DNA of 64,000 nt from NCBI GenBank assembly GCA_036867785.1, contig CP145423.1, positions 496,001 through 560,000 on the forward strand, read 5' to 3'. A program made the position numbers and the translations under genes. This document shows positions 8,853 to 64,000 of the stretch, one piece after another. Positions within the stretch are counted from its first letter, which is position 1. Every line of letters starts with the position of its first letter. Source of the stretch: Plasmodiophora brassicae. Lineage: Eukaryota. Under the pieces are notes generated by a model. It worked only from the letters and a program-made list of their open reading frames with translations, searched no databases and had not been told where the DNA came from.

Positions 8853-9229
8853 CTTCGCTGCCGGTCAGCAGCACGATGCCGATGTTCTCTTTCTACTAAT
8901 CACGGATCAGATGGACGCTTACGAGGTGCCCGACGCCCGTCTTGCAACGTCCCGTTTGCCATGCTGGGCGGTCGTGGTTTGCTCGTTCGTCAAGGTATTG
9001 CCTAGGGTCGCTCGACCGTGGCAGTCGCCCAGCATGGCAACCGGGACATCGTAGGACGGGCGCCTGGTTGCATGGACGCACGTCGCGCACGTATCGGTGG
9101 CGTGTTCAACGGACCCGACCATCGATCGCAGAATCAGTTGCCCCTTGGCTCCGCGCACCTCGTACGCGTCCAACTGGTGCAGCATCACTTCAAGAAGCCA
9201 CCCGCGTCGTGCTGTTGACCGGCTGCGAA
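8853..9229. repeat. Imperfect inverted repeat (arms of about 80 bp) encoding USP-like QQHDA-box fragments
   Basis: 8853-8932 (+) translates FAAGQQHDADVLFLLITDQMDAYEV. 9152-9229 (-) translates FAAGQQHDAGGFLK*MLHQLDAYEV. Confidence 0.7.
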
Positions 9230-20941: not shown

Positions 20942-22484
20942 ATGGACAGGCGGCGAGGCCTGCCAATCCTGATCCTGATCGCGTGTCTCATCGTGTTCCA
21001 GTTCGCCGTCCTGGGCATGCTGTACCTGCCAATCTCGCAATGGAGCGACGAGCCCATCGCCCAGCGGCAAGCCGGCGATGTCGTCGTCGATGTCGGCCTT
21101 CGCGACAAATACCACTTGGCGTCGATACCGGATGACGATGCACGGTCGTGCGAATCTGGGGTCGGCGTAACGGCGCTGGAACGCTGGGATCGCCTGGCCA
21201 AGACATTCATCGCCAACTCTGGCAACGATGAGGCTCCCCGGCTAACATGTCGTGTGACTCGACTGCCGCACCAGCCCATCGCCACACAGCCCCACACGTA
21301 AGCGCGTCGCCAGCGCGGTCTCCTCTGCCGTTCCTGACACCAACGTTCCCTGGTACAGGATCTGCAATGCGACGCGGATCGTTCTCGATCGGTCGTTCAT
21401 GACGCCCGCAGACTGCCCGAAGCACCGACCTGGATACATGTGCGACCCGTTGCCGACCTTCGAGCATTACTCAACCGGCGCGCTGTCTTTCCCCAACGCC
21501 ATTCGGCTGCCAGCGTTCACGATCGACCAGTTCCCAGCCGACCACCTCCGGGACATGTTCGATAGTGTCGGCGTCGCCGATCGCCACGACGGCGCCGGCG
21601 AGCACGTCATCGACGGGTTCGTGCTGGTCGTGACTCGGGAACGCGGCGAACACCTGAACCTCTTCCATTCGGCAACGGATTGGTTCAACGCGTTCATGGC
21701 CATGGTGGTCCTGGATCTTCCGCCGTCCACGACGTCGGTCCTCATTATGGACAGTCATCCGCAGAGCCCCCTCGACATCGTCTGGGACGCAGCGTTCAGT
21801 CGGTCGCGACGGACGATGCGGATCAGGCAATCCCCCGACCGTATGCTGATCCAGAATGCGGTCTTCGTCCCGCCCGGGTACTCCTCGTTCTTCTACCGGC
21901 ACAACACCGATCCGGACGATGATTGCCAGGTGGGCACCGGTGGCGTCGCGCTGTACGATGCCTTCTCCAGGCACATTCTCTCCGGGTTCGGCGTCACCCG
22001 CAGGCAGGCGCGGACGTCGTCTGTACGTGTCCTGATGGTCGTTCGCAAGCCGTATTTGCCGTCGCACCCACGAATGGGGCGTCAGATCGATAACGAAGCT
22101 GCCCTGGTGTCCGCGCTGGATTCCATCCCGGGTATCGTCGTCGATGTCGTCGACTTTGCTGGTCTGGATTTCGAGGAACAGCTCCGGCGCGTGTCCGCGT
22201 CGGACGTCATGATCGGTATGCATGGTGCCGGGCTGACACATGCGCTGTGGTTGCCAGTCGGCGGGGCGCTGCTGGAGATCCGGCCGAAACCCAGCATGGG
22301 CTGGTACTGCTTCCGGCATATGGCGAAGTACGCCGGCCTGCACTACGACGCGCTGGTCAACAGGCACTTCCCAGCCGGGTACCGCGAGGACGCGCATGGA
22401 GACTATACGACCGTCGACGTTGCCGAGTTGACCTCCATCGTCGAATCGTTATTATCGAGAGTAAGATCCAGCCCGGCTCGGTAA
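20942..22484 (+). CDS. Glycosyltransferase family 61 (EOGT/xylosyltransferase-like), type II membrane protein; 2 exons
   Basis: N-terminal TM anchor. NLFHSATDWFN, RQIDNE, FEEQL, DVMIGMHGAGLTHALWL and LLEI motifs. Intron at about 21298-21358. Confidence 0.88.
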
Positions 22485-24247: not shown

Positions 24248-24819
24248 ATGATGATGCCTACGAAAAACCGCAACAAGATCCTGTCGAAGCTGTTCCTCGG
24301 TAATGAGACTGTTGTAGTACCGCTGCGCGGACGTATCGTCTGACGCGGCTGCCGTCCTCAGACGGGGTCATGGTTGCCAAGAAGGACCCGTCGCTGCTGA
24401 AGCACCCGGAATTCCCTGACATTCCCAACCTCCACGTCATGAAGCTGATGGAGTCGATGAAGTCGCGCGGCTACGTGTCCGAGAAGTTCTCGTGGCGCTG
24501 GTACTACTGGTCGCTCACCGACGAGGGCATCGAGTACCTGCGCGAGTTCCTGCACCTGCCGTCCACCATCGTCCCGATGACGCACAAGAAGACCGCCGAG
24601 TCCGCCCGCCCTATCCCATCCGGGTTCGCCGGCGCCGACCGCCCTCGTGGGCCCGGCGGCGACCGTGAAGCGTACCGTGGCAAGAACGTCGGCGATGCAC
24701 CGTCTGGGTACCAGCCGCAATTCGGCGGCGAACGCTCCGGGTTCGGCAGCGGCATGCGCGGCGGCCGCGGCGGGTTCGGCTCCAGCCGCGGCGGGCGCTT
24801 CGCACGCGAAGAACAGTAG
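24248..24819 (+). CDS. RPS10: 40S ribosomal protein S10 (eS10); 2 exons
   Basis: MMMPTKNR...[11 protein letters not shown]...[47 protein letters not shown]. Confidence 0.97.
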
Positions 24820-24946
24820 AGAACCTGCAGCACCAACATTTATGTACGTCTTATACACCAGGAGGATGGGTTGACATGTTGAATCTGCGTCCTCGGCGCC
24901 GACGGCTCTATGACGGCCAGCATTGTCGATTGTCGCCCGCGACGCC

Positions 24947-25794
24947 ATGCAAGAGGAGGAGTTTGATAGTAGGGGCAGCGGCGGCGGCTGCACGACCGGG
25001 GCGCGTGTCTGATCAGGGGGATCCGATAGATCTGCTGAAGGTGATCGTGGTTGGCAACGGCCAGGTCGGGAAGACGAGCATGATCACCAAGTTCGCGACG
25101 GGCGACTTCACCGGGCAGTACAAGAAGACGATCGGGACCGACTTCATGGAGCGGGAGATCCAGGTGCCGTCCAAGGGCGCGTCCATCAAGCTGATGCTGT
25201 GGGACACGGCCGGCCAGGAGATGTTCAGCGAGATCACCAGGAACTATTACCGGGGCGCCGGCGCCGTGGTCTACGCGTTCAGCAGTGTCGACCGGGACTC
25301 GTTCGAGGCCATCGAGAAGTGGAGGCACCGTGTCCTCGAGGAATGTGGAGACACCATCGCGGAAGTGCTTGTCCAGACAAAAACGGACCTGATCTCACAG
25401 GCGGTCATGACGCCGAACGAGACCGAATCCCTCGCCAGGAAGCTGAACCTCAAACTGTACCGCATCTGCACGAAGGAGAACAAACTCGTCGACGAAGGTT
25501 CGGTACCCGGGGTGCTGCTGTCGTGAAGCGTGCTCAGACGGGTGTCGTTCAGTGTTTCAGTACCTGTCAGAGCAGTACCTGGACAAGACGGCGGCGACGG
25601 GAACGTCGACGAATACGACGGCGACGAAGGCCCCGCCCACGCCGAGCAAAGCGGGTTCGAGCAGGGAGATGCCTAAGAGCCCGGTGCATGACGTCAGCGG
25701 TCAGGAGGCGACCAGCCCCAAAGATAAGTTCAAGCTGGAGCCGTCTCGCCAGAGAACCGGAGGCAGGAAGGACGCCCGATGCAGCATTCTTTGA
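24947..25794 (+). CDS. RAB23: Rab23 small GTPase; 3 exons
   Basis: MQEEEFD|NLLKVIVVGNGQVGKTS, YKKTIGTDFMER, LMLWDTAGQE and a single-cysteine CaaX end (CSIL). Confidence 0.88.
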
Positions 25795-42092: not shown

Positions 42093-42552
42093 TTACCTAG
42101 GCGGGTTGCCGGGCGCGTAGAAGTCGTACTCAACGGTCGACATTCGTCGTTCAGCGGCACCGGTTGGCGTTGCCGTGAACATCGTCGTTGGGGACATGCG
42201 CTGGTAGTCGACGTTCCCGATGGACATCCGCTGGAACTGGGCTCGCGCCATGTGCTGGGATGCGCTGGACCAGTCGAAGGCAGTCGACCCGAACGCGGAT
42301 GTCGTCGGCGGTGTCTCAATTCGCATCAGGGATCCGTTCATCTCGTCATAGTGCGGTTGGACTTGCTGCTGGACAGCAGCGAACGGCGAGTTTGGCGCCG
42401 GCTGGAAATGGAACATCGGGTACTGGGTCGGCGCAAACTGCATCTGTTGTGGTTGCTGCTGTTGCTGCTGCTGCTGCTGCTGCCGCTGCTGATGCTGCTG
42501 CTGTTGTTGTGGCGCCTGCGCTTGCTGCGACTGCTGCTGTTGCTGTTGCTGC

Positions 42553-42584
<32 letters not shown>

Positions 42585-43367
42585 TTGTTGCTGCTGCTGC
42601 TGCTGTTGTTGCTTTGGGGAATGCGCCAGCGGTTGAGCGAACGGAATTATGGGGTTGCCAAGTGACGAGGCACCAGCGTTCTGTGGCGGAATGACGGCCA
42701 TGGACATCGATCGTGCCTGGTCGACGTTCATGCTCTCGTTCTTGATATAGACGGGAACCGACTGCGACTGCGGCCGCGTCTGGACGTCGTTCGCCGCCTG
42801 CGATCGCTCTTGCGCTTCCTTCATACGCCGCAGCTCCAGCAACAGCGACTCGTTCTGTTGCCGCAGGAACATAACCTGCTGCTGCAGCTCGTCGATCTGC
42901 GTCCGCTGCTTCGTGATCGTGTCGGTGGACTTCCTCGAGATCAGGTGCAGCAGGTCGAGGCGGCCGCGCAGGAAGTTCGGATGCCGGAACTCGCTTGCGC
43001 CGTTCACCAGGGACGTCTTACTGAACCCGTAGAAGTGGAGCTGCCTGACGAAGGACGCGAAATTGGCGTGCTTGAAGAACATTGGAAGGACTTCGGCGGC
43101 CAGGACGTTCGCGTCTCGCACCAGGAATCCGGTCCCGCACGGCAGCCATGATACGCATTCATGCGCCCCGATCATGGAGTACGTCTTTTGGATGAAGGGC
43201 GTCTGCTTGGCATCGGTCGGCAACGCCTCTCCGTACGTAGCTGGGTCGTCGTCGTGCACTTTAATGGGCGGCACGGGCGCGGATACACCGCGCACCCGCG
43301 TCTGCACCGGGGCGCTCATATCGGACACGCTCCTGCTGCCCGGGCGCGTCAGCGCTTCGGTCGTCAT
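42093..43367 (-). CDS. Heat-shock-factor (HSF)-type transcription factor with coiled coil and polyQ
   Basis: PFIQKTYSMI...VSW...F...LPMFFKHANFASFVRQLHFYGFSK...EFRHPNFLRG, followed by a heptad region. Confidence 0.93.
42443..42612 (-). repeat. CAG/CAA trinucleotide repeat (polyglutamine)
   Basis: (tgc/tgt)n tract on the + strand. Confidence 0.95.
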
Positions 43368-43821
43368 TTTCGTACTGGCTGCGCCGACGGCGGTTCGCGA
43401 GCGTTCGCGACGTGTCGTCTTCCGACGCAATGGCAGATTAGGGCCGAAACTCCGCCGTGCGTGGACTGTGACGGATTTAGACCGGCTGGTCACCCCGCGC
43501 AAAATCGCGCACTTAACGTTCGGGTGCCGCGCGGCCGCCCACTCGCAAAATGCGGCCGCCCGAACCGAACAGAACTCTCTCGATGCCGGTCGCGCTCTGT
43601 GACCCACTGTACCACCCCTCGCACTATAGCCGCCCGGGGTTGACTGTACCAATGGTTAACACACCTTCGAACTTAACGACGGGCAATCGCCAACGTGTGG
43701 CGTACCCGTACGCGAGCGGCTTTTGATTTATTCGTTCCGTTTAGGAATGGATAAATTCCGTTCCTATTCTATCCACTATCAAGTGTGCCAGGGGCGTAAG
43801 CACGCAACAGCTGCATCGCGG

Positions 43822-43970
43822 CGCAGTCGCGACGCTACAGCACCGCAGTCGCGACACTGCAGCACCGCAGACGCGACACTGCAGAACCGCAGACGCGACA
43901 CTGCAGCACCGCAGTCGCGACACTGCAGCACCGCAGTCGCGACACTGCAGCACCGCAGACGTGATGCTGC
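43822..43970. repeat. 22-bp minisatellite, 6 full units and 1 partial
   Basis: Unit cgcagWcgcgacactgcagcac. The last partial unit contains the ATG of the ligase gene. Confidence 0.93.
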
Positions 43971-46162
43971 GCCGGTTGGTCGTGTATGCGCTTCGCGGTG
44001 GCGTCCGCCGCGCTCGCGCAGCGCCGGCAGCGGGCAAGAACGACGGGGCGGTCGCGGCGGCCACGCGGATCACCGAACTTCGCGACTGGCTGTCGCGATG
44101 TAGCCGGGCGTACTACCGCGGGGAAACGCCGCTGGCGACCGACCCGGAATTCGACGCCGCCATGGGCGAGCTCGCCGAACTCGAATCCCGGTTCCCGTAC
44201 ATGAAGTCGCCGTCGTCGCCGACGTCGCAGATCGGCACGCATCCGCTGACGTTCCTCACCGAGCCGCATTCGCAGGCGATCGTGCCGGTGCGGTGCGTCG
44301 GTGCGCTGGACGACGTCACCCTGTACATGCGGCAGGTGCCCGGCGCGACCTGGAGCGTCGAGCACAAACTCGACGGGATGACGGTCGCCTTGCGCTACGA
44401 CCAGAACGGCAACCTCGTCAAGGCGATCTCGCGGGGCGACGGCGAGTACGGCGATGACATCACGTTGGCCGTCAAACGCTACGCGAAGAACGTCCCGGTG
44501 CAGGTCGACAATAAGCTCGGCGCTCCGTTCGAGGTGCGATGCCAGGCCGTCGTAGACGCGAAGAACACGACGACGTCGACGGCGCTGCGTGCGCAGATCG
44601 CCGCCCTGCTTCGTCCGGTCGTGGAGAGCGCCCCGGACGCGTCGAAGGCCATCGACCTGGTCTGCAGTGACCTGCTACGTCAGGACGAGGCGGACGATTC
44701 CGACCACTCGCACTACGACGACATGCGCATGCTGGAGTCGATGGGATTCGCGATCGACTCCGACCTGGTGACCTGCACCGAATCGGAGAACGTGCTGACC
44801 GCGATAGCGCACCTGCAGGCCGGTCGCCAGAGGTACCGGTACGAATGCGTTGGCGCCATTGTCAAGCTGGACAGCTCCGCCGAGCGGCGGCGTCGTCGCC
44901 GCGCGGGATCGGAGTGCTCGGTGGCGTTCATGTTCGATACGGCGCGGGCCGAGAGCGTCCTGGAACGCATCGACATCACGGTCGGCAGGTTCGGCAAGGT
45001 GTCGCCGATTGCTGTCGTCCAGCCTGTCAAACTCGGCCACGTAACCGTCACGCGGGCGACATTGTTCAGCGCCAAGAACGTCGTCGGTCTCGGCGGCGGC
45101 GAACCGGGCGACATTGTCGACCTCCAGCAGTTTGGCGACGTCCTCCCGAAGGTGCTCAAGATTGTCCCGCAGAGCTCCAGGACGACGGATCCGCGTTCGC
45201 TGTTCGAAGTCTGCCCGTGCGGGCGGAAGTCGAAGCTGAAATTCGACGAGGGTGCACTGGACGCCTGGTGCGTCGACGAGGAGTGCCCATCGATTCGGGT
45301 TGCTCGACTGGCGCACGCTGTCTCGAAGGACGCCCTGGACGTCAAGGGTGTCGGCGTCGCGTCCGTAACGCAGCTGGTGCAAGCCGGCCTCGTTCGTGAC
45401 ATTCCGGATCTGTTCCAGCTGCGCAAGCGCGATCTCGTTCTGTTGCCGGGTTGGGATCGCCGAACGGCGACCGCGGCCGTCGCGAACCTCGTTCAAGCTC
45501 GGACGCGCGGCGACCCGCTGGGCCTGCTGAACTGTCTCGGCATTGAGGGCGTCAGTCGGGAAATGTGCCGCCGTCTGCTGAGGAACTTCGGTCTGTCCCC
45601 TGAGCGCGTGCTTCGCGCCGATCTGGACGAGCTTGCCGAGGCGCGTGGTGTCGGCCGTCGTGTGGCGGAGGCGATCGCGAAATTCGCCCAGAGCGAACGG
45701 GGCGCGAACATCATCAAGGCGTTCCGCGACCTGGGGCTGTTCGCGTACACGACTGGCGACAGCACTACCGCCGCGCCCACGTTCCCGATGTCGGGCAAGA
45801 TTGTCGTGCTGTCGGGCAGGTTCAATCGTTTCGACGTCGATGAGCTCAGGGACCGGTTCCGGGCGCTGGGCGCCCGTATCGGCGACCAGGTCACCGCCAA
45901 GACGTCGTTCCTGTTCGCCGGCCGGGACGACGTCCGGTTCAGCCGCAAGATGAAGGACGCCAGGAAGCACGGCGTCCGCGTCGTCCGCGAGGACGAGATG
46001 ATCCAGCTGCTCCAGCTACACGAAGGCGAGGAATACTGCTTCGCCGGGTCGTCCGCGCATATCCCGCTGGGCGTCCGGGCCCCGACGTCGACGTCACCCA
46101 CCTCTGCGACCGCCGATGTCGAAGTCGCCCCACAAGACGTTAATTCAGGGCAACGCGTGTAG
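43964..46162 (+). CDS. ligA: NAD+-dependent DNA ligase (LigA-like), intronless and divergent, with a putative mitochondrial presequence
   Basis: Domain Ia YY...P...DPEFD, motif I EHKLDG, SRGDGEYGDDIT, OB fold VGRFGKVSP...TRATL, Zn finger CPCG...C...C, HhH LDVKGVG and BRCT VVLSGRF...VTAKTSFL. Confidence 0.9.
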   Translation: MLRRLVVYALRGGVRRARAAPAAGKNDGAVAAATRITELRDWLSRCSRAYYRGETPLATDPEFDAAMGELAELESRFPYMKSPSSPTSQIGTHPLTFLTEPHSQAIVPVRCVGALDDVTLYMRQVPGATWSVEHKLDGMTVALRYDQNGNLVKAISRGDGEYGDDITLAVKRYAKNVPVQVDNKLGAPFEVRCQAVVDAKNTTTSTALRAQIAALLRPVVESAPDASKAIDLVCSDLLRQDEADDSDHSHYDDMRMLESMGFAIDSDLVTCTESENVLTAIAHLQAGRQRYRYECVGAIVKLDSSAERRRRRRAGSECSVAFMFDTARAESVLERIDITVGRFGKVSPIAVVQPVKLGHVTVTRATLFSAKNVVGLGGGEPGDIVDLQQFGDVLPKVLKIVPQSSRTTDPRSLFEVCPCGRKSKLKFDEGALDAWCVDEECPSIRVARLAHAVSKDALDVKGVGVASVTQLVQAGLVRDIPDLFQLRKRDLVLLPGWDRRTATAAVANLVQARTRGDPLGLLNCLGIEGVSREMCRRLLRNFGLSPERVLRADLDELAEARGVGRRVAEAIAKFAQSERGANIIKAFRDLGLFAYTTGDSTTAAPTFPMSGKIVVLSGRFNRFDVDELRDRFRALGARIGDQVTAKTSFLFAGRDDVRFSRKMKDARKHGVRVVREDEMIQLLQLHEGEEYCFAGSSAHIPLGVRAPTSTSPTSATADVEVAPQDVNSGQRV

Positions 46163-57659: not shown

Positions 57660-58350
57660 GGCAATCGCCATCATGAAGCTGAGACGGATTCAGTGCTGCT
57701 GCAACGGACGTCATAGTCCTGTCGTATCGGTCGGCCGTGACGTCTTGCTGTCATCGGGCAGTCCAGAACGGCTAATATGCCTACGACGACGGCATACGTC
57801 AACTCATGTGTCAGGCAGAGACGGTTGCAAACCTTATTGGACGGGCCAACCATCTTGCCCGCTTTCTGGGCATACGCTGACGATGACTGGACCGGGTACA
57901 TGGTATGCTGAGCGCACATCATCGCCAGGATGCCCCGGAACGCCAGGCCATCAAACGATTCCGCACAGTTCTCGATGACGGGAGTGCCCCGAATTCGTAT
58001 CATTGCGAGAATTCGGTCCAGAGGATTCCTCCACCAGTAAACGTGTGTCACGATGAGCGCCGCAACCTTCTCCAATTGCAGCAAGGCGTTTCGCTGCTTC
58101 AGGTCCGGTAGCAGTGTGCCCATAGTAAGCTGAACTCGAACGCCAATGAGCAAATGCAACGATAACGTGAACCGCAACAGCATAACGTCGACGGGAGCGG
58201 GTATCAGGTCGTGAGCGGCGAGGACACGGGACATGTCAGGGATGTTAATAGCCGACATGAGACGTAGGACGCTTTCGCGAACGCGTTCCCATGGATGTAA
58301 ACGTCCAGGCATGGCCGTACCGGACAGGCACGCGGTCGCCTGATCCGATG
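57660..58350 (-). pseudogene. Degenerate partial duplicate of the DegT-family gene
   Basis: Homologous to about 54700-55520. EDCA is now ENCA, the SFGSIK (PLP-lysine) segment is deleted and both ends are truncated. Confidence 0.85.
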
Positions 58351-58760
58351 AAACCTCACAGGGGCCGGAGCGCCTGGTAGTCGCAACGTGTTGCTCGACA
58401 GCCGTACACAGAGCCAGGGCGTGCGCTCTTAACCAAACGCCGACAGCCAGCAGCTATGGCGCCCCGATCCATCTTCCTTGTACAAACATTCAGAAGCGTG
58501 ACATCAGCACCGGGGCGCTAACCACCTCATGGTTTCACGTATGTACGGTACGCGCGAAACGTGTCGGCAGAGACGTAGCCGAACGCGTCGAGCGGCACAC
58601 TGCCGGGTCGGATCAGGCGATCATCATGCGCCTGTCGGTGCGGTCCTGCCTGGACCTGAGACCTGTAGGGGGAGCTCTGCAACGCACCATACGCCCTCAT
58701 TATGCAGCATCATTTGTCTCGTGTCCAACTTAAGGAATTGTATAATGTCTGGCGTCTTCC

Positions 58761-59411
58761 TTATTCGTCAGCGCCCAGCGACGTTCGGCGACGTTGCAGA
58801 GCGCGTGCCAGTTCGTCTCGGAAGTTGCCCGGCGTCGCCCCGGCCGCCGGCTGTTTCGCTGGCAGAGGTTTGAACGTGTGCGACCCGGCGCTGGCGTTGC
58901 TTGCGTCGGCGCAGCTGTTGGTGGATGAGCGGCGGCGATTCACTGCGACTTGCAATTCCTCGAGCAACGTGCTGCTCCCCTTGGCGATCGATGTCGTACG
59001 TGGTGGAGCTGGTCCCTGCTGTTCCACTTGTGGAGGAGCACGACGTGGCACAGCGGGCGCCTGAGGTGGTGCCGTCGGTGGTACGGGTACAGCAGGCGCA
59101 GGGGGCGCTGGCGGTGGTGGGCGTACTGCAGGCGCAGGGGGTGCTGGTGGTGGTGCGCGTACAGCAGGGGCAGGGGGCGCCGGCGGTGCCGGTTTGACAG
59201 TTGGCACAGCTGGTGCCAGGGGCGCGACGGTCGATGACGCGACGACACGCGGTGACGGGCGGTGTCGTCGACGCCAGCCTATGAGGCGCACGTGGCAACA
59301 GTCAGCAGGAGCAGCGCCACCTGGTGCACACTGTTCCCCCGTACATTCGATGAGCTCGCGGATCGCGAGTCCCGCCACGAAGCCCAGTGCTCCAGCCTTG
59401 ATCGCGTGCAT
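58761..59411 (-). CDS. Membrane-anchored proline-rich protein (copy B)
   Basis: Same length as 56085-56735, near-identical and intact. Confidence 0.65.
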   Translation of the reverse strand: MHAIKAGALGFVAGLAIRELIECTGEQCAPGGAAPADCCHVRLIGWRRRHRPSPRVVASSTVAPLAPAVPTVKPAPPAPPAPAVRAPPPAPPAPAVRPPPPAPPAPAVPVPPTAPPQAPAVPRRAPPQVEQQGPAPPRTTSIAKGSSTLLEELQVAVNRRRSSTNSCADASNASAGSHTFKPLPAKQPAAGATPGNFRDELARALQRRRTSLGADE

Positions 59412-59791
59412 CTTGTTGCGTCCTGTCGACGACCAATATCGAAATAACGTTGCGTCGGGGCGACAGGCACTCCCCGTCGGCCGATCGGCCGAACGGGAGA
59501 CGGAACGAGATTCGTCAGCACCCTCTTACGTTACCCCGTACCGCCTCGCCGATCCCACGTTCTGGCCGACGCAACGAGATCCATGCCCGATTCCTGGGAA
59601 CGCCAGCGCTGCCCATCCGGGAGGCGGCCAGGTGATGACCGCGAGCCTAGTGGCTTTGTGCCCGATCTCTGCTAAATCATGCAATGATGGGGGCCCATAC
59701 ACACGAGGATGTGCAGGCGAACGGTCTGGGGGGCAGGACCATGGCAGTTCTGACGAAGAATGATCATCTAGAATTGTGTATAGAACTGTGC

Positions 59792-60565
59792 TCATGATTC
59801 GAGCGCCCTGATGGCAACAATCTCGGTAGGCGATATCCTTCTCATCTGTCGCTGCACGCGATTCACCATGACGAAGATAATGATCTGCGCACACAAAGGT
59901 CAGCGTTCACGAATCGCACGACTGGGCACTCGTTGTCGCGTTCCGACCTCCATGACGGCGCCGATTGTGTTGAACGTGACGAACATGGCGTCCTTGTAGG
60001 CGAGGACGTCCAAATAGACCCTGAGGGCAGCGTTCAACAGCAGGTAGACTTGGTAGACGATGAGGAGGTTGGCGCGGTAGTAGGTGGACCCGAGGTACCC
60101 GGCCACCGGCAGGGCCATGGCGACCAGCAGGATCGGGATCGTCAGCGAGAAGATCAGCAGGAACACGCAGTCGATGATGGCGAAGATACGCACGGTCCGG
60201 GCGCCCTGCATGACCGCCTGCCCTTCGTCCGAGATGAACCCAGGGAAGTCCTGCGCGCCCGCATTGACGACTACGACCTCCGGCGGTGATGACACTCCAG
60301 TCTCGTCGGACACTTGACGCGCCTGGCGCACGACCAGATGGACGACAACGTCGTCAGCAGCGATGCCAGCATCCCGCAGGGATTCCTGGTCGGCCAGTTC
60401 GCGCCCGGCGTGGATCAGGCGCTGCAGGTCGGCGGGGATCGACTCCTGGTCCTGGATCGCCGCCTTCAGCTGCGCGACGTCCCATCCCGGCTCGACTTTG
60501 TCGATCGTCAGCGTCTGCCCGGTGACGGAGCGCACCTTGACGCGTATGGTGGCCGTCCCGCCCAT
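59792..60565 (-). CDS. Ubiquitin-like domain plus multi-pass TM protein; 2 exons
   Basis: VKVRSVTGQTL...VAQLKAAIQDQESIPADLQRLIHAGRELAD...VHLVVR, followed by 3-4 TM helices. Confidence 0.8.
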
Positions 60566-61065
60566 GCTGTCGCCCATTTCGGCGCGGACGAAACACTGCG
60601 ACGGCGCGCCGCCGACCCGCCGCCGCTAAATTATCGGTCTGCTGCGCCTGCGCCCCGCCGGTAGCCCGTTCCAGAAGGCGGCGCCGCCTCGCGATTCCAG
60701 AACAACAGCGGCAACAGGGCGGCCACGTCAGTCACAGCCAGGCAAGCCCATCGACGAATGTGGGGGGTGGGGGCACCCGGCCTCCCCGTGACTCATCACG
60801 CCCTGCTGCCCCTTCGGGTGTGGACGTCCGAATATGGAGGGTCGTTGGAACACGCGCGCGCGCCCGCAGAAAAGTACACGGCGCGCCGGTCTGCAGCTCG
60901 GTGTGTGTGTTGGACTGTGGGGGGCGCACGCCGTCCAGTCGGCGCGTGTCTGCAGCTCCGGACCGACGACGCCGCGCAACGCCGTCGCGCGGCGTCACGG
61001 GGTAACGGTGCGACGCGGCCCCCGCCAATGCAGTCCCGACTGCGGGCGCAGCTCGCCGTGGCGTC

Positions 61066-63522
61066 ATGGACGTCTGGCGCCGCCTCCAAGTCACCGCGCG
61101 CCGATCGGTGGCGTCCCGGGCGCATCATTCGACCGTTGCGGATCGCTCGGCGCCCGGGCGGTGTCAGGCGTTCGCGGATCGACCCACGATCCCGCTGGCG
61201 GTGGCCACGTTGTCGCAGGAGACGGACGCCGATCGCGGATGGGACGTGTACCGACGCGCGCTGCCGGGCGCGGACACCCGACTGTTCCAGGCCATGATGT
61301 GGTTCTGCATGCGGCACGCGCCGGCGAAGGCCCCGGAGGTGATGCAGGCGGCGGCCGCATCCGGGATCCAGGATCGCCCGTTGCTGATCGCGTTCCTGGG
61401 CGCCTGTCGAGCCGCGTCGCCTCCGATGATGGCGGAGGCCCTGGCGGCGTACGCGTCATCCGGCCCCGGATGCGACGACCGCCTCCTCTACGACCTCGCT
61501 GACATCTGCCGGCGGGCCGGCCGTCCCTGCGCCGCCCTATCGCTCGTCTCGGACGCCATCGACAAGAACGTCAGGTTCGGACCCGGCCTCCTGTCCATGT
61601 TCGCGGCGTGCTGCGCGGCGGCCGGCAGCGAGTCCCCCGACGCCGCCGCCGCCGCCGCCGAGCAACTGCTCAACGTCGTCCGTTCGAACCTGGCCCCCCC
61701 GCCGGACAAGCCGCCGTTCTTCGTCAACGTCGCCAAAGCCCTACTCGCGCATCGTCGCTTTGACTCGGCCGCGTCCGTCCTCACGTTGATGGAGGCGCAC
61801 AACGTCCCGCCGGGGATCCAGATCTACACGCTGATCCTCGCCGGCCTCGCCAGGGCGAATCGCTCCCGTCAGGCGATGGCCGTGTTCCACGCCATGGTGC
61901 GGCGAGGCGTCCCCGTTGACGCGCCCGTGTTCACGTTGCTCGTCAACGCGTGCGGCCGGTGCCGGGACCTGGACGCGCTGCGGTCGCTGCATGCGCACGC
62001 GTACCAGCGGCCGGCTCTGCTGGACGACATTGGCGCCTGCTCGCTGATGTTCGCCTACGATCGTTGCTGGGCGCTGGACGCCGCCGAGCGGATGTTCCTG
62101 GAGCGGTGCGCCGTGTCGGCACCGACGACGGCGATGCTCCACGTGATGATCGTGGCGTACCGGCGCCATGGGCGCCTGGGTGTCGCCGTCGACACGTTCG
62201 AGCGCATGAAGGCGTCCGGGGTGCCGATCCCCGACAGGACACGCCAGAACATGCTCTGCGTGTATTCCAAGGCGGGCCTGGTTGACGAGGCGCTGGACCT
62301 GTTCCGGTCGGCGACGACGAACGTTGACACGTCCGCCTTCGTCATGCTGGTGCAGGCGTGCGCGCGGGATCGTCCCGCGCTCGCCGACCTGCACCGGCAC
62401 GCCATGGAGCGGTCGCTGATGCGTCAGGACGACGTTCTGGTTGCGTTCGTGTCCGCGTACCAGCACGCGGGCGACCTGCCCGCTATCCAGAACCTGCAGG
62501 CGTATGCGTCGGGGACGCTCTTCTGGCAGCACGATGCGGTTCGCAGCGCGTTCATCCTGGCGTACGCGTACTGCAGCAGTATCGACCTGGCCGAACGCGT
62601 GTTCGACGACCGGCGCGCGTCCTGCCTGACGTCCATGGTCGCCGCGTACGCCCAGCACGGGCTCCTGCCGGAAGCCATGGGCGCCTTCCGTCAGTTCACA
62701 GGGGCCGGGTTGCGGCCGAACAGCAACGTGATCGGGCACCTCCTCCAAGCGTGCGCCCGTGCTGGCGCCCTGCACGAGGCAGCGGATCTCGTCTCGGCGC
62801 ACGGTGCCCATTGGGCGCCGGGCCATGCCGTGCACGTCGTCGACCTGTACGGCAGGATCGGCGACCTGGACCACGCCGAGCGCCTCGCTGCCGACGACCT
62901 GCTGTCGCTGATGACCGTTCTCGCCGCTTGCCGATCGCACAAAGACGTGGCTCGTGCCGAACGCGTTCTGGGCCGGATCCGATCGACGGCGCTGTCGCCG
63001 GCGAACGTGCTGGCGGCCGCCTACCGCATCATGTCGGACGTGTACGCGAGCGTTGGCCGTGCTGGCGATGTCGCCCAGCTGCACGACGAGATGCGGGCGA
63101 GGAACCTGACGGTTGTCCCCGGGAGGACCACGGTCATCGTCGACGACCGCGCCGTGCACTTCCGGTCCGGCGACGACGCACACGACCCGAACCTTCGCGA
63201 CGCCCATCGACGTCTGATGAAGGACCTCGAAGCGCACGGGTACGCCACTGACCCGTGCACGGTCGTGTCCAGCGAATCGCCGCTGGACGCGCGACGATCC
63301 GTTCGCGGGCACAGCGAGAAGCTCGCGCTAGCGTTCGCGCTCAGCGCCCCTCTGCCGGCGGGCGCCCCGATCCGCCTGGCGAAAACCACACGGGTCTGCC
63401 CCGATTGCCACGACGCCGCCAAGCGCGTCTCCCAGATCTACGACCGCGACGTCTACCTGCGGGACGAACGACGGCATCACCGGTTCCGGGACGGCCAGTG
63501 CTCCTGTGGAGACGTCTGGTAG
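61066..63522 (+). CDS. DYW-type pentatricopeptide-repeat protein (PPR array, E-like region, DYW deaminase), intronless
   Basis: PPR motifs (IYTLILAGLA...FHAMVRRGVP; LTSMVAAYAQHG...GLRPN; HVVDLYGRIG), PG box (VPGRTTV), HSEKLA, RVCPDCH and RD..RHHRFRDGQCSCGDVW*. Confidence 0.95.
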   Translation: MDVWRRLQVTARRSVASRAHHSTVADRSAPGRCQAFADRPTIPLAVATLSQETDADRGWDVYRRALPGADTRLFQAMMWFCMRHAPAKAPEVMQAAAASGIQDRPLLIAFLGACRAASPPMMAEALAAYASSGPGCDDRLLYDLADICRRAGRPCAALSLVSDAIDKNVRFGPGLLSMFAACCAAAGSESPDAAAAAAEQLLNVVRSNLAPPPDKPPFFVNVAKALLAHRRFDSAASVLTLMEAHNVPPGIQIYTLILAGLARANRSRQAMAVFHAMVRRGVPVDAPVFTLLVNACGRCRDLDALRSLHAHAYQRPALLDDIGACSLMFAYDRCWALDAAERMFLERCAVSAPTTAMLHVMIVAYRRHGRLGVAVDTFERMKASGVPIPDRTRQNMLCVYSKAGLVDEALDLFRSATTNVDTSAFVMLVQACARDRPALADLHRHAMERSLMRQDDVLVAFVSAYQHAGDLPAIQNLQAYASGTLFWQHDAVRSAFILAYAYCSSIDLAERVFDDRRASCLTSMVAAYAQHGLLPEAMGAFRQFTGAGLRPNSNVIGHLLQACARAGALHEAADLVSAHGAHWAPGHAVHVVDLYGRIGDLDHAERLAADDLLSLMTVLAACRSHKDVARAERVLGRIRSTALSPANVLAAAYRIMSDVYASVGRAGDVAQLHDEMRARNLTVVPGRTTVIVDDRAVHFRSGDDAHDPNLRDAHRRLMKDLEAHGYATDPCTVVSSESPLDARRSVRGHSEKLALAFALSAPLPAGAPIRLAKTTRVCPDCHDAAKRVSQIYDRDVYLRDERRHHRFRDGQCSCGDVW

Positions 63523-63708
63523 CGCGTTGACAATAATAAGCAGTCGACATCATCAGTCCGGGTGGAGTGGCACAACAACACAGGGTACTGTACATACGTT
63601 GGCCTTGCCGGGGACGATGGGGCTGGGACGGTCAGCGATCCGGAAGGTACCCACAGTCAGACGGGCGTATTTGGGCGGTGGTGGCGTGGACCGTCGTCGA
63701 CGACGCCC

Positions 63709-64000
63709 ATGTCGTGTCCGGCCCCTGACTTTGAGGGCGCCTATCGCCTCGTGCACGGCCAGCTGCTGGCGCTGCCGCCGACCCTGTCGTACCATTCGAT
63801 TCACCACACGTTCCAGGACGTGCTGCCGTGCTGCATCCAGCTGGCCCAGGAAGAGGGCCTGACGCCTGAACGGACGCTCCTCGTCAAAACCGCTGCGCTC
63901 TTCCACGACACAGGGTACGCGTTGCCGCGTGTTCGGAACCGGCCGCCAGCCTCACCACATGCACGCAGGTTCCTTGACCAGTACGACAAGAACGAGCCGT
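63709..64000 (+). CDS. HD-domain metal-dependent phosphohydrolase (partial, runs off the window)
   Basis: LSYHSIHHT..DVL...EEG...LLVKTAALFHDTG|FLDQYDKNE. GT-AG intron at about 63915-63968. Absent from the ORF track. Confidence 0.8.
   Translation, partial: MSCPAPDFEGAYRLVHGQLLALPPTLSYHSIHHTFQDVLPCCIQLAQEEGLTPERTLLVKTAALFHDTGYALPRVRNRPPASPHARRFLDQYDKNEP

Follow-up and report, generated by a model that had tools for sequence, protein, structure and literature searches.

Families of DYW proteins outside plants have been known since 2010, and in land plants these proteins are represented by PLS-class PPR-DYW proteins such as OTP86 and DYW1. Non-plant DYW editing factors are rare and patchily distributed, and each lineage that carries them bears on the questions whether such factors spread by gene transfer and how they are rebuilt in a new host. 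The heteroloboseans Naegleria and Acrasis have DYW proteins together with mitochondrial C-to-U editing that has been verified (PMC4202320). The same combination is found in the rhizarian Paradinida, where massive mitochondrial C-to-U and A-to-I editing was described as the first C-to-U report in Rhizaria (PMC11946409). A 2026 survey counts '31 DYW in Rhizaria', and its main text names no species (PMC13386178, section 7). We found no paper on DYW proteins or RNA editing in plasmodiophorids in the open literature, subscription journals not being covered. Here we describe a PPR-DYW gene in a 64,000-nucleotide stretch of the genome of Plasmodiophora brassicae, an economically important and uncultivable crop parasite (contig CP145423.1, positions 496,001 to 560,000; this whole stretch is called the window, and positions are counted from its first letter). 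The gene is a functionally undescribed member of the known PPR-DYW kind, in a lineage-specific family with unusual features. We consider it, with a rough probability of 0.62, to be a nuclear gene whose PPR-DYW product is targeted to the mitochondrion and edits RNA there from C to U at specific sites; both localisation and editing activity are inferred from homology and precedent.

The gene and its parts lie as follows.

61066..63522, plus strand: PPR-DYW open reading frame (ORF), 818 amino acids plus stop, complete and intronless, with an ATG start
61066..61188, plus strand: presequence-like N-terminus, residues 1-41, rich in Arg, Ser and Ala, net charge +5, with a low-confidence modelled helix at residues 2-15
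61189..61815, plus strand: family-specific N-terminal module, residues 42-250, six degenerate helical hairpins with conserved, non-canonical code positions
61816..62898, plus strand: variable PPR tract (repeats 7-17), residues 251-611, part of it aligning with P2-L2-S2 of a synthetic PLS-DYW protein
62899..63111, plus strand: E1- and E2-like helical hairpins, residues 612-682, from the colinear alignment with 9kfx_A, with modelled helices at 612-640 and 646-678
63112..63519, plus strand: DYW cytidine-deaminase domain, residues 683-818, with PG box, HSE, CPDCH, H805, C812-S-C814 and DVW
63310..63318, plus strand: codons of H749-S750-E751, zinc ligand and catalytic Glu by homology
63397..63411, plus strand: codons of C778-P-D-C781-H782, zinc ligands by homology

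The reading frame is open from 61006, and the ATG at 61066 is the earliest in frame. A Pfam scan of the 818-residue protein matched PPR at 2.1e-27 (93.8 bits, cut-off 25), PPR_2 at 1.8e-19 (70 bits) and PPR_long at 1.9e-11, besides PPR_1 and PPR_3, and placed DYW_deaminase (PF14432) at residues 744-818 (2.4e-24, 85.4 bits, cut-off 24). Among PDB sequences the best match is a synthetic PPR-DYW editing factor, 9kfx (1.1e-80). The colinear alignment to 9kfx_A runs from residue 478 to the last residue (341 residues, 190 bits) and spans P2-L2-S2-E1-E2-DYW, and isolated DYW domains are matched as well, namely those of DYW1 (7w86, 3.6e-20) and OTP86 (7o4e, 2.5e-19). The PG box, VVPGRTTVIV, covers residues 683-692 with the PG itself at 685-686, the HSE motif lies at 749-751 and CPDCH at 778-782. 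The C-terminus reads RHHRFRDGQCSCGDVW, which is HHRF..G.CSCGDVW, and its motif is complete with H805, F807, G810 and C812-S-C814 all present. In an alignment of 31 rows including the query and covering several eukaryote groups (alignment A1), the positions H, S, E, C, D, C, H, H, G, C and C of the deaminase motifs, HSE among them, are invariant in all 31. That the window copy keeps every invariant residue is most simply explained by purifying selection on deaminase activity.

The structural models are consistent with this assignment. An AlphaFold2 model of residues 641-818, built from a 31-row alignment, has a mean predicted local distance difference test score (pLDDT) of 92.5. Its best Foldseek matches are 9kfx (6.1e-15), the OTP86 DYW domain 7o4e_B (9e-10, template modelling (TM) score 0.85 on the target) and DYW1 7w86 (1.2e-7, TM score 0.85), and behind these rank bacterial cytidine-deaminase toxins and further deaminases. 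As modelled, the C-terminal fold matches the solved DYW domains, which have the cytidine-deaminase fold. The full-length AlphaFold2 model (38-row alignment, pLDDT 91.6, predicted TM score 0.78) consists of a low-confidence N-terminus (2-29), an unbroken alpha-solenoid over residues 42-682 with 19 helical hairpins (17 PPR-like ones and the E1- and E2-like pair) and then the deaminase domain. A sequence-only reading of this DNA had recognised a PPR-DYW factor whose deaminase site is intact, in what looked like a protist outside the plants, and the Pfam and PDB matches, the conserved residues and the Foldseek results agree with it; every motif that it quoted (PG box, HSE...CPDCH, HHxF..G.CSCGDVW) is present, as are the 818-codon frame and the presequence-like N-terminus.

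Compared with the land-plant proteins of PLS class (9kfx, OTP86 7o4e/7o4f, DYW1 7w86), the window protein aligns colinearly over P2-L2-S2-E1-E2-DYW, and the PG box, HxE, CxDCH, the H..CSC C-terminus and the deaminase fold are held in common. Both are encoded by intronless nuclear genes with an organelle-type presequence. Over their full length the proteins share 21-29% identity, and in the E/DYW region 33-40%. The differences are a CPDCH in place of CGDCH, a terminal DVW, a majority of repeats without canonical code pairs, and an N-terminal module of 210 amino acids that is common to all Plasmodiophora paralogues and not found in the two plant-labelled proteins compared. P. brassicae, unlike land plants, has no plastid.

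Our searches show that the gene is one copy among about thirty. With residues 601-818 as query, phmmer found 2053 matches among 1.84 billion representatives at E<=1e-3, 63 of them at E<=1e-30. All family counts come from the best 150 of the 2053 matches, of which 30 were looked up, so further paralogues may rank lower. We built a 157-row tree of the E2-DYW region from the query, nine land-plant-labelled rows and 147 of the 150 matches, leaving out the short P0062 and P0065 and the self match; the tree is unrooted and holds no named paradinid, fungal, Physarum, Acanthamoeba, hornwort, lycophyte or fern sequences. It splits a 37-row side with the query from a 120-row side (SH-aLRT, the approximate likelihood ratio test, 99) that contains all nine plant-labelled rows and those of Naegleria and Willaertia, and the DYW phylogeny that had been proposed as a check sets the query apart from both groups. 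Within its side the query falls into an inner clade of 33 rows, with ultrafast bootstrap 98 and SH-aLRT 85 in a 76-row tree, where the bootstrap had not fully settled, and SH-aLRT 85 in the 157-row tree.

This clade consists of the query, 18 rows that were looked up and 14 that were not. Seventeen of the 18 are recorded as P. brassicae 'DYW domain-containing protein', 'PPR repeat' or 'hypothetical protein', and the eighteenth, P0050, has no name. The named P. brassicae rows are spread over at least nine different contigs, while the window itself holds no second PPR or DYW ORF in its 64 kb. The gene is, then, a member of a lineage-specific family that numbers about 33 dispersed copies, and the survey figure of 31 for Rhizaria fits the roughly 33 lineages seen here. 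Among them the window copy is a lineage of its own: the closest rows in the C-terminal region are P0050 (54% identity) and P0047 (51%), and full-length identity to P. brassicae paralogues (P0047, P0051 and P0060 represent clusters of these) is 35-43%, with P0047 at 41%. The paralogues named 'DYW domain-containing protein', which are automatic names, share the architecture of the window copy from presequence to DYW.

The family is marked by its N-terminal module. In an alignment of the query, 31 clade rows and six outgroup rows (alignment A2), residues 42-250 are 33-48% identical to the query in 31/31 clade rows and 28-29% identical in the metagenome proteins P0057 and P0089; the same region reaches just 10-15% in Naegleria, Willaertia and two land-plant-labelled proteins. 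BLASTP finds P0057 colinear with query residues 18-414 (E 2e-40), whereas for the Naegleria protein P0079 the alignment does not start before query residue 224 and then continues to the end (26% identity). The basal four rows of the 37-row side are the metagenome proteins P0057, P0089, P0068 and P0069. P0057, which comes from an AT-rich genome, and P0089 are the two long enough to be judged and both carry the module, and since they also branch basally the family exists in further relatives as well. CPDCH, with Pro in second place, is likewise found in most of the clade and of its metagenome relatives, and plants and heteroloboseans have CGDCH.

Among the described non-plant systems, Heterolobosea likewise have a lineage-specific DYW expansion (11 genes in Naegleria gruberi, 12 in Acrasis kona) and an AT-rich mitochondrial genome (PMC4202320, PMC6823432). 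Their rows group together (99/92) within the side of the tree that contains the plants. They carry CGDCH, and the N-terminal module is absent from them (14-15% identity over that region); the Plasmodiophora family is about three times larger. Paradinida (Ascetosporea) belong to the same supergroup, Rhizaria, and the same Endomyxa neighbourhood, and their DYW proteins are predicted to be mitochondrial. By description, which is the basis of this comparison, these number one to three per strain, group with Agaricales fungi and have a two-residue deletion (PMC11946409).

The family bears directly on where the gene came from. The sequence-only reading had suggested horizontal gain from a plant host. 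A recent transfer from Brassica was considered here, together with contamination of the assembly by plant DNA. PPR genes of plants typically lack introns, as this gene does, and the named matches in a first word-based search were all land plants; word-based protein searches as a whole returned mostly plants and one paralogue, and an ESM Atlas look-up plant and rotifer DYW clusters only. Yet the best plant match has 29% identity against 41% over the full length to the paralogue P0047, the 37-row clade is separated from the 120 rows that include plants and heteroloboseans, and the N-terminal module is not in the plant proteins compared. The GC content at third codon positions (GC3) is 0.872 in the PPR-DYW ORF and similar in its neighbours: 0.876 in the adjacent ubiquitin-like exon, 0.819 in a ligase-like ORF and 0.762 in an HSF gene, the last two described below.

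Physical linkage provides further evidence on this question and also on expression. Contigs of four public runs (X11, X14, X17 and X20) were placed on positions 58001-64000. No run among X14, X17 and X20, which come from three studies, is recorded as RNA; their kind is guessed, and only GT..AG joints mark them as RNA-derived. Such contigs give neither level, strand nor transcript ends, and one contig over two genes does not equal one transcript. Five GT..AG joints of 54-66 nucleotides occur in X14, X17 and X20 (58124/58181, 58296/58362, 59277/59344, 59884/59948 and 63913/63968), all in genes that flank the PPR-DYW ORF, and the DNA run X11 has none of them, from which it follows that the contigs of the other three derive from spliced RNA. 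Introns of this length, like a GC content of 60%, agree with the published P. brassicae genome. The two joints nearest to the gene define these introns:

59885..59947, minus strand: 63-nucleotide intron of the upstream ubiquitin-like membrane-protein gene, joint 59884/59948 (CT..AC) in X14, X17 and X20 and not in X11
63914..63967, plus strand: 54-nucleotide intron of the downstream gene, joint 63913/63968 (GT..AG) in X14, X17 and X20

Between 59948 and 63913 no splice joint was found in the contigs of X14, X17 and X20. The ORF is covered by joint-free contigs with 0 differences (X14 rec12, 59948-63913; X17 rec18, 60988-63913; X20 rec22, 59948-63546), and because contigs from spliced RNA run through it without a joint, the gene is transcribed and intronless. 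An X20 contig end with an adaptor tag lies at 63671. The divergent upstream ORF (59900-60577, minus strand) encodes a ubiquitin-domain protein with a hydrophobic tail (Pfam ubiquitin, 4.5e-18). The intron-rich neighbours described in the sequence-only reading are therefore real, and the linkage check that it had set to expose contamination joined the ORF to spliced native genes in the contigs of three runs. The product of a neighbouring gene is, moreover, recorded on a contig of 923,546 bp. This spliced native linkage, the native GC3 and the large contig together exclude plant-DNA contamination for practical purposes, and contamination was dropped as an explanation.

A recent origin from the host is extremely improbable on the same grounds, with paralogues as the closest relatives, neighbour-like GC3 and a module of the family's own. 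An ancient transfer into the lineage may have occurred, and transfers of DYW genes from plants to non-plants have been inferred in general (PMC13386178, section 7; PMC4202320). As for the timing of any such event, we cannot use the gene structure, for lack of introns is a family trait of plant PPR genes too and is uninformative here.

Returning to the interpretation of the protein as a mitochondrial editing enzyme, we propose the following mechanism. The Arg-rich N-terminus (residues ~1-40) would direct import into the mitochondrion, the parasite's only genome-bearing organelle. The alpha-solenoid (42-682) would then bind single-stranded RNA 5' of the target C, with the variable repeats 7-17 providing specificity and the conserved N-terminal module serving a task common to all copies, and the DYW domain would deaminate the target C. 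In the deaminase, H749, C778 and C781 would hold the catalytic zinc with E751 as the proton shuttle. H782, H805, C812 and C814 presumably form the structural zinc site, an assignment that we take over from the OTP86 DYW structure paper.

The composition of the repeats fits such a division of labour. An in-house PPR hidden Markov model (HMM) places repeat starts at 251, 286, 321, 355, 390, 490, 518, 553 and 585. In repeats 1-6 the code positions hold non-code residues that are conserved across the family, and in repeats 7-17 they vary among paralogues, with T/N/S at the fifth and D/N/S/T at the last position. To judge from these sequences, the variation in repeats 7-17 is as expected of specificity determinants. 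Repeat number also varies within the family, for alignment occupancy is 0.30-0.34 at residues 391-450, and both ends are conserved.

The N-terminus is where a different destination could be considered. The first 40 residues contain 8 R+K against 3 D+E, the mean Kyte-Doolittle value of the first 20 is -0.61, and no hydrophobic signal-peptide core was found (the maximum 15-residue mean within the first 65 residues is 0.91). An extension of at least 30 residues before the module is present in 23 of 32 family rows and net positive in all 23, the remaining nine being truncated models. The sequence-only reading had raised, as a more speculative option, that the protein acts on host organellar RNA, in which case it would be secreted as an effector, reach the mitochondria or plastids of the host and edit or bind RNA there. 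The organism does live inside plant cells, and the protein is of a type used by plant organelles. A secreted protein would, however, be expected to have the hydrophobic core that is lacking here, and Arg-rich presequences throughout the family are what the parasite's own mitochondria would call for. The size and diversification of the family also fit housekeeping RNA metabolism. We find no support for the effector interpretation and regard it as very unlikely.

Several observations weigh against our interpretation of the gene as encoding an editing enzyme. The Pfam E_motif scores 22.8 bits, under its cut-off of 27.3, and the terminal triplet is DVW with V in place of Y, although the middle residue of this triplet is variable among the other rows as well (DFW, DHW, DEW, DVW). 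Targeting was judged from composition alone. The PPR array is degenerate, as the sequence-only reading had it: canonical fifth/last code pairs occur in three of the 17 PPR-like repeats, namely 7 (TD), 8 (TD) and 15 (TN), single positions being subject to a shift by one since the repeat borders were taken from the model and the HMM. So few canonical pairs do not allow a target to be predicted, and RNA may be recognised differently than in plants. No RNA editing is reported in the available text of the paper on the P. brassicae mitochondrial genome, where the term occurs only in a reference title (PMC6823432). Naegleria and Acrasis have 11-12 DYW genes and two verified sites each in an AT-rich mitochondrial genome (PMC4202320), and the mitochondrial DNA of P. 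brassicae is also AT-rich, with 26.2% GC (PMC6823432). Lastly, the catalytic signature is not kept by the whole family. Both HxE and CxxC are retained in only 18 of the 33 clade rows, the window copy among them. The other 15 have lost at least one of these residues (11 the Glu, one the His and three more a Cys), so that some members cannot act as deaminases; the figures depend on how the rows are aligned. Degenerate signatures seen in the clade include HSV, HGP, HAC and RPDGH.

These losses raise the question whether the protein serves the mitochondrion in another way than by editing, for instance in splicing, cleaving or stabilising transcripts, with the DYW domain as an RNA-binding or nuclease-like module. 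This is made plausible by the mitochondrial genome of P. brassicae, which is unusually intron-rich with 54 introns and has unresolved splice sites (PMC6823432), and a comparable surplus of DYW genes over verified sites led the authors of the heterolobosean study to propose cleavage or splicing roles (PMC4202320). The window copy, on the other hand, differs from the 15 degenerate rows in retaining its full catalytic signature, and it keeps all catalytic and zinc residues that are invariant across 31 rows from several eukaryote groups. We therefore consider a non-editing role rather unlikely for this copy, though it is the most serious competitor of the editing enzyme that we favour.

For the organism as a whole, our best inference is that Plasmodiophora would have an uncharacterised mitochondrial C-to-U editing system, as the sequence-only reading had suggested. 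In its fuller form the proposal is that its mitochondria perform plant-type C-to-U editing with about 30 independently expanded PPR-DYW genes, a lineage-specific N-terminal module being fused to every copy, and that the roughly half of the copies with dead sites may depend on active ones in trans. We put this forward tentatively, at somewhat short of even odds. The catalytically dead members offer a hint that they might work with active copies in this way, and if they do, the plant E+/DYW1 arrangement would be a parallel.

Some further observations concern the locus itself. An out-of-frame ATG lies 37 nucleotides upstream of the PPR-DYW start and opens an overlapping frame (61029-61297, plus strand), which could damp translation if the transcript begins upstream of that ATG. 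Antisense and other-frame ORFs of 523, 297 and 222 amino acids run across the gene; no Pfam family was matched by them, and long ORFs of this kind are expected because the DNA is 70% GC. An antisense gene at this locus was considered and dropped.

The neighbouring genes named here are ordinary eukaryotic ones: besides the upstream ubiquitin-domain gene they include those for an HSF-type DNA-binding protein (42093-43655, minus strand), a Ras-family GTPase (24669-25526, plus strand) and a GT61 glycosyltransferase (21258-22484, plus strand). Rfam and tRNA scans of the window gave no matches. The downstream gene, from 63709 on the plus strand, has an 'LFHDTG' HD-like motif and is split by the 54-nucleotide intron listed above. 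At 43745-46162 (plus strand) there is an intronless ORF of 805 codons from stop to stop, with a recorded product of 732 amino acids. It encodes an NAD-dependent DNA ligase of bacterial type, in which adenylation, OB, HhH and BRCT domains are present. Its recorded Pfam list lacks the zinc finger PF03119, unlike that of most relatives, and its closest relatives are bacterial or metagenomic at just 23-30% identity. Such a ligase is unusual for a eukaryote and may be organellar.

At about 58700-59600 the word depth is several-fold up in all four runs, and many variant positions lie on different contigs. The 66-nucleotide spliced intron at 59277/59344 (minus strand) falls inside this region, and the 254-amino-acid ORF at 58761-59525 (minus strand) has no Pfam family match. 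The region looks like a transcribed multi-copy family. An X11 contig of 9137 nucleotides spans 59787-64000, and its positions 8877-9137 match 59787-60043 reversed with 4 gaps. Two explanations suggest themselves: the 3' end of the ubiquitin-like gene may have an inverted copy some 4.6 kb beyond the window, or the assembly may have folded back on itself.

DYW domains in Rhizaria are already in print, and the paralogues of the window gene are already labelled 'DYW domain-containing protein' in public databases. The present analysis adds a large expansion in a crop parasite, which comprises about 33 lineages when counted at 50% identity. For those who engineer PPR-DYW editors, three differences from the plant factors are of interest: the conserved N-terminal module, the CPDCH variant and the mostly non-canonical code residues. 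The prediction of editing is directly testable on existing RNA-seq and DNA data. If it is true, Rhizaria would have a second editing system and plant pathogens their first, and mitochondrial gene models with 'GT-AT/GA-CA splice sites' and frame problems would need to be re-read against RNA. The annotation of the 114.7-kb mitochondrial genome would then change, and the machinery responsible would be parasite-specific in sequence.

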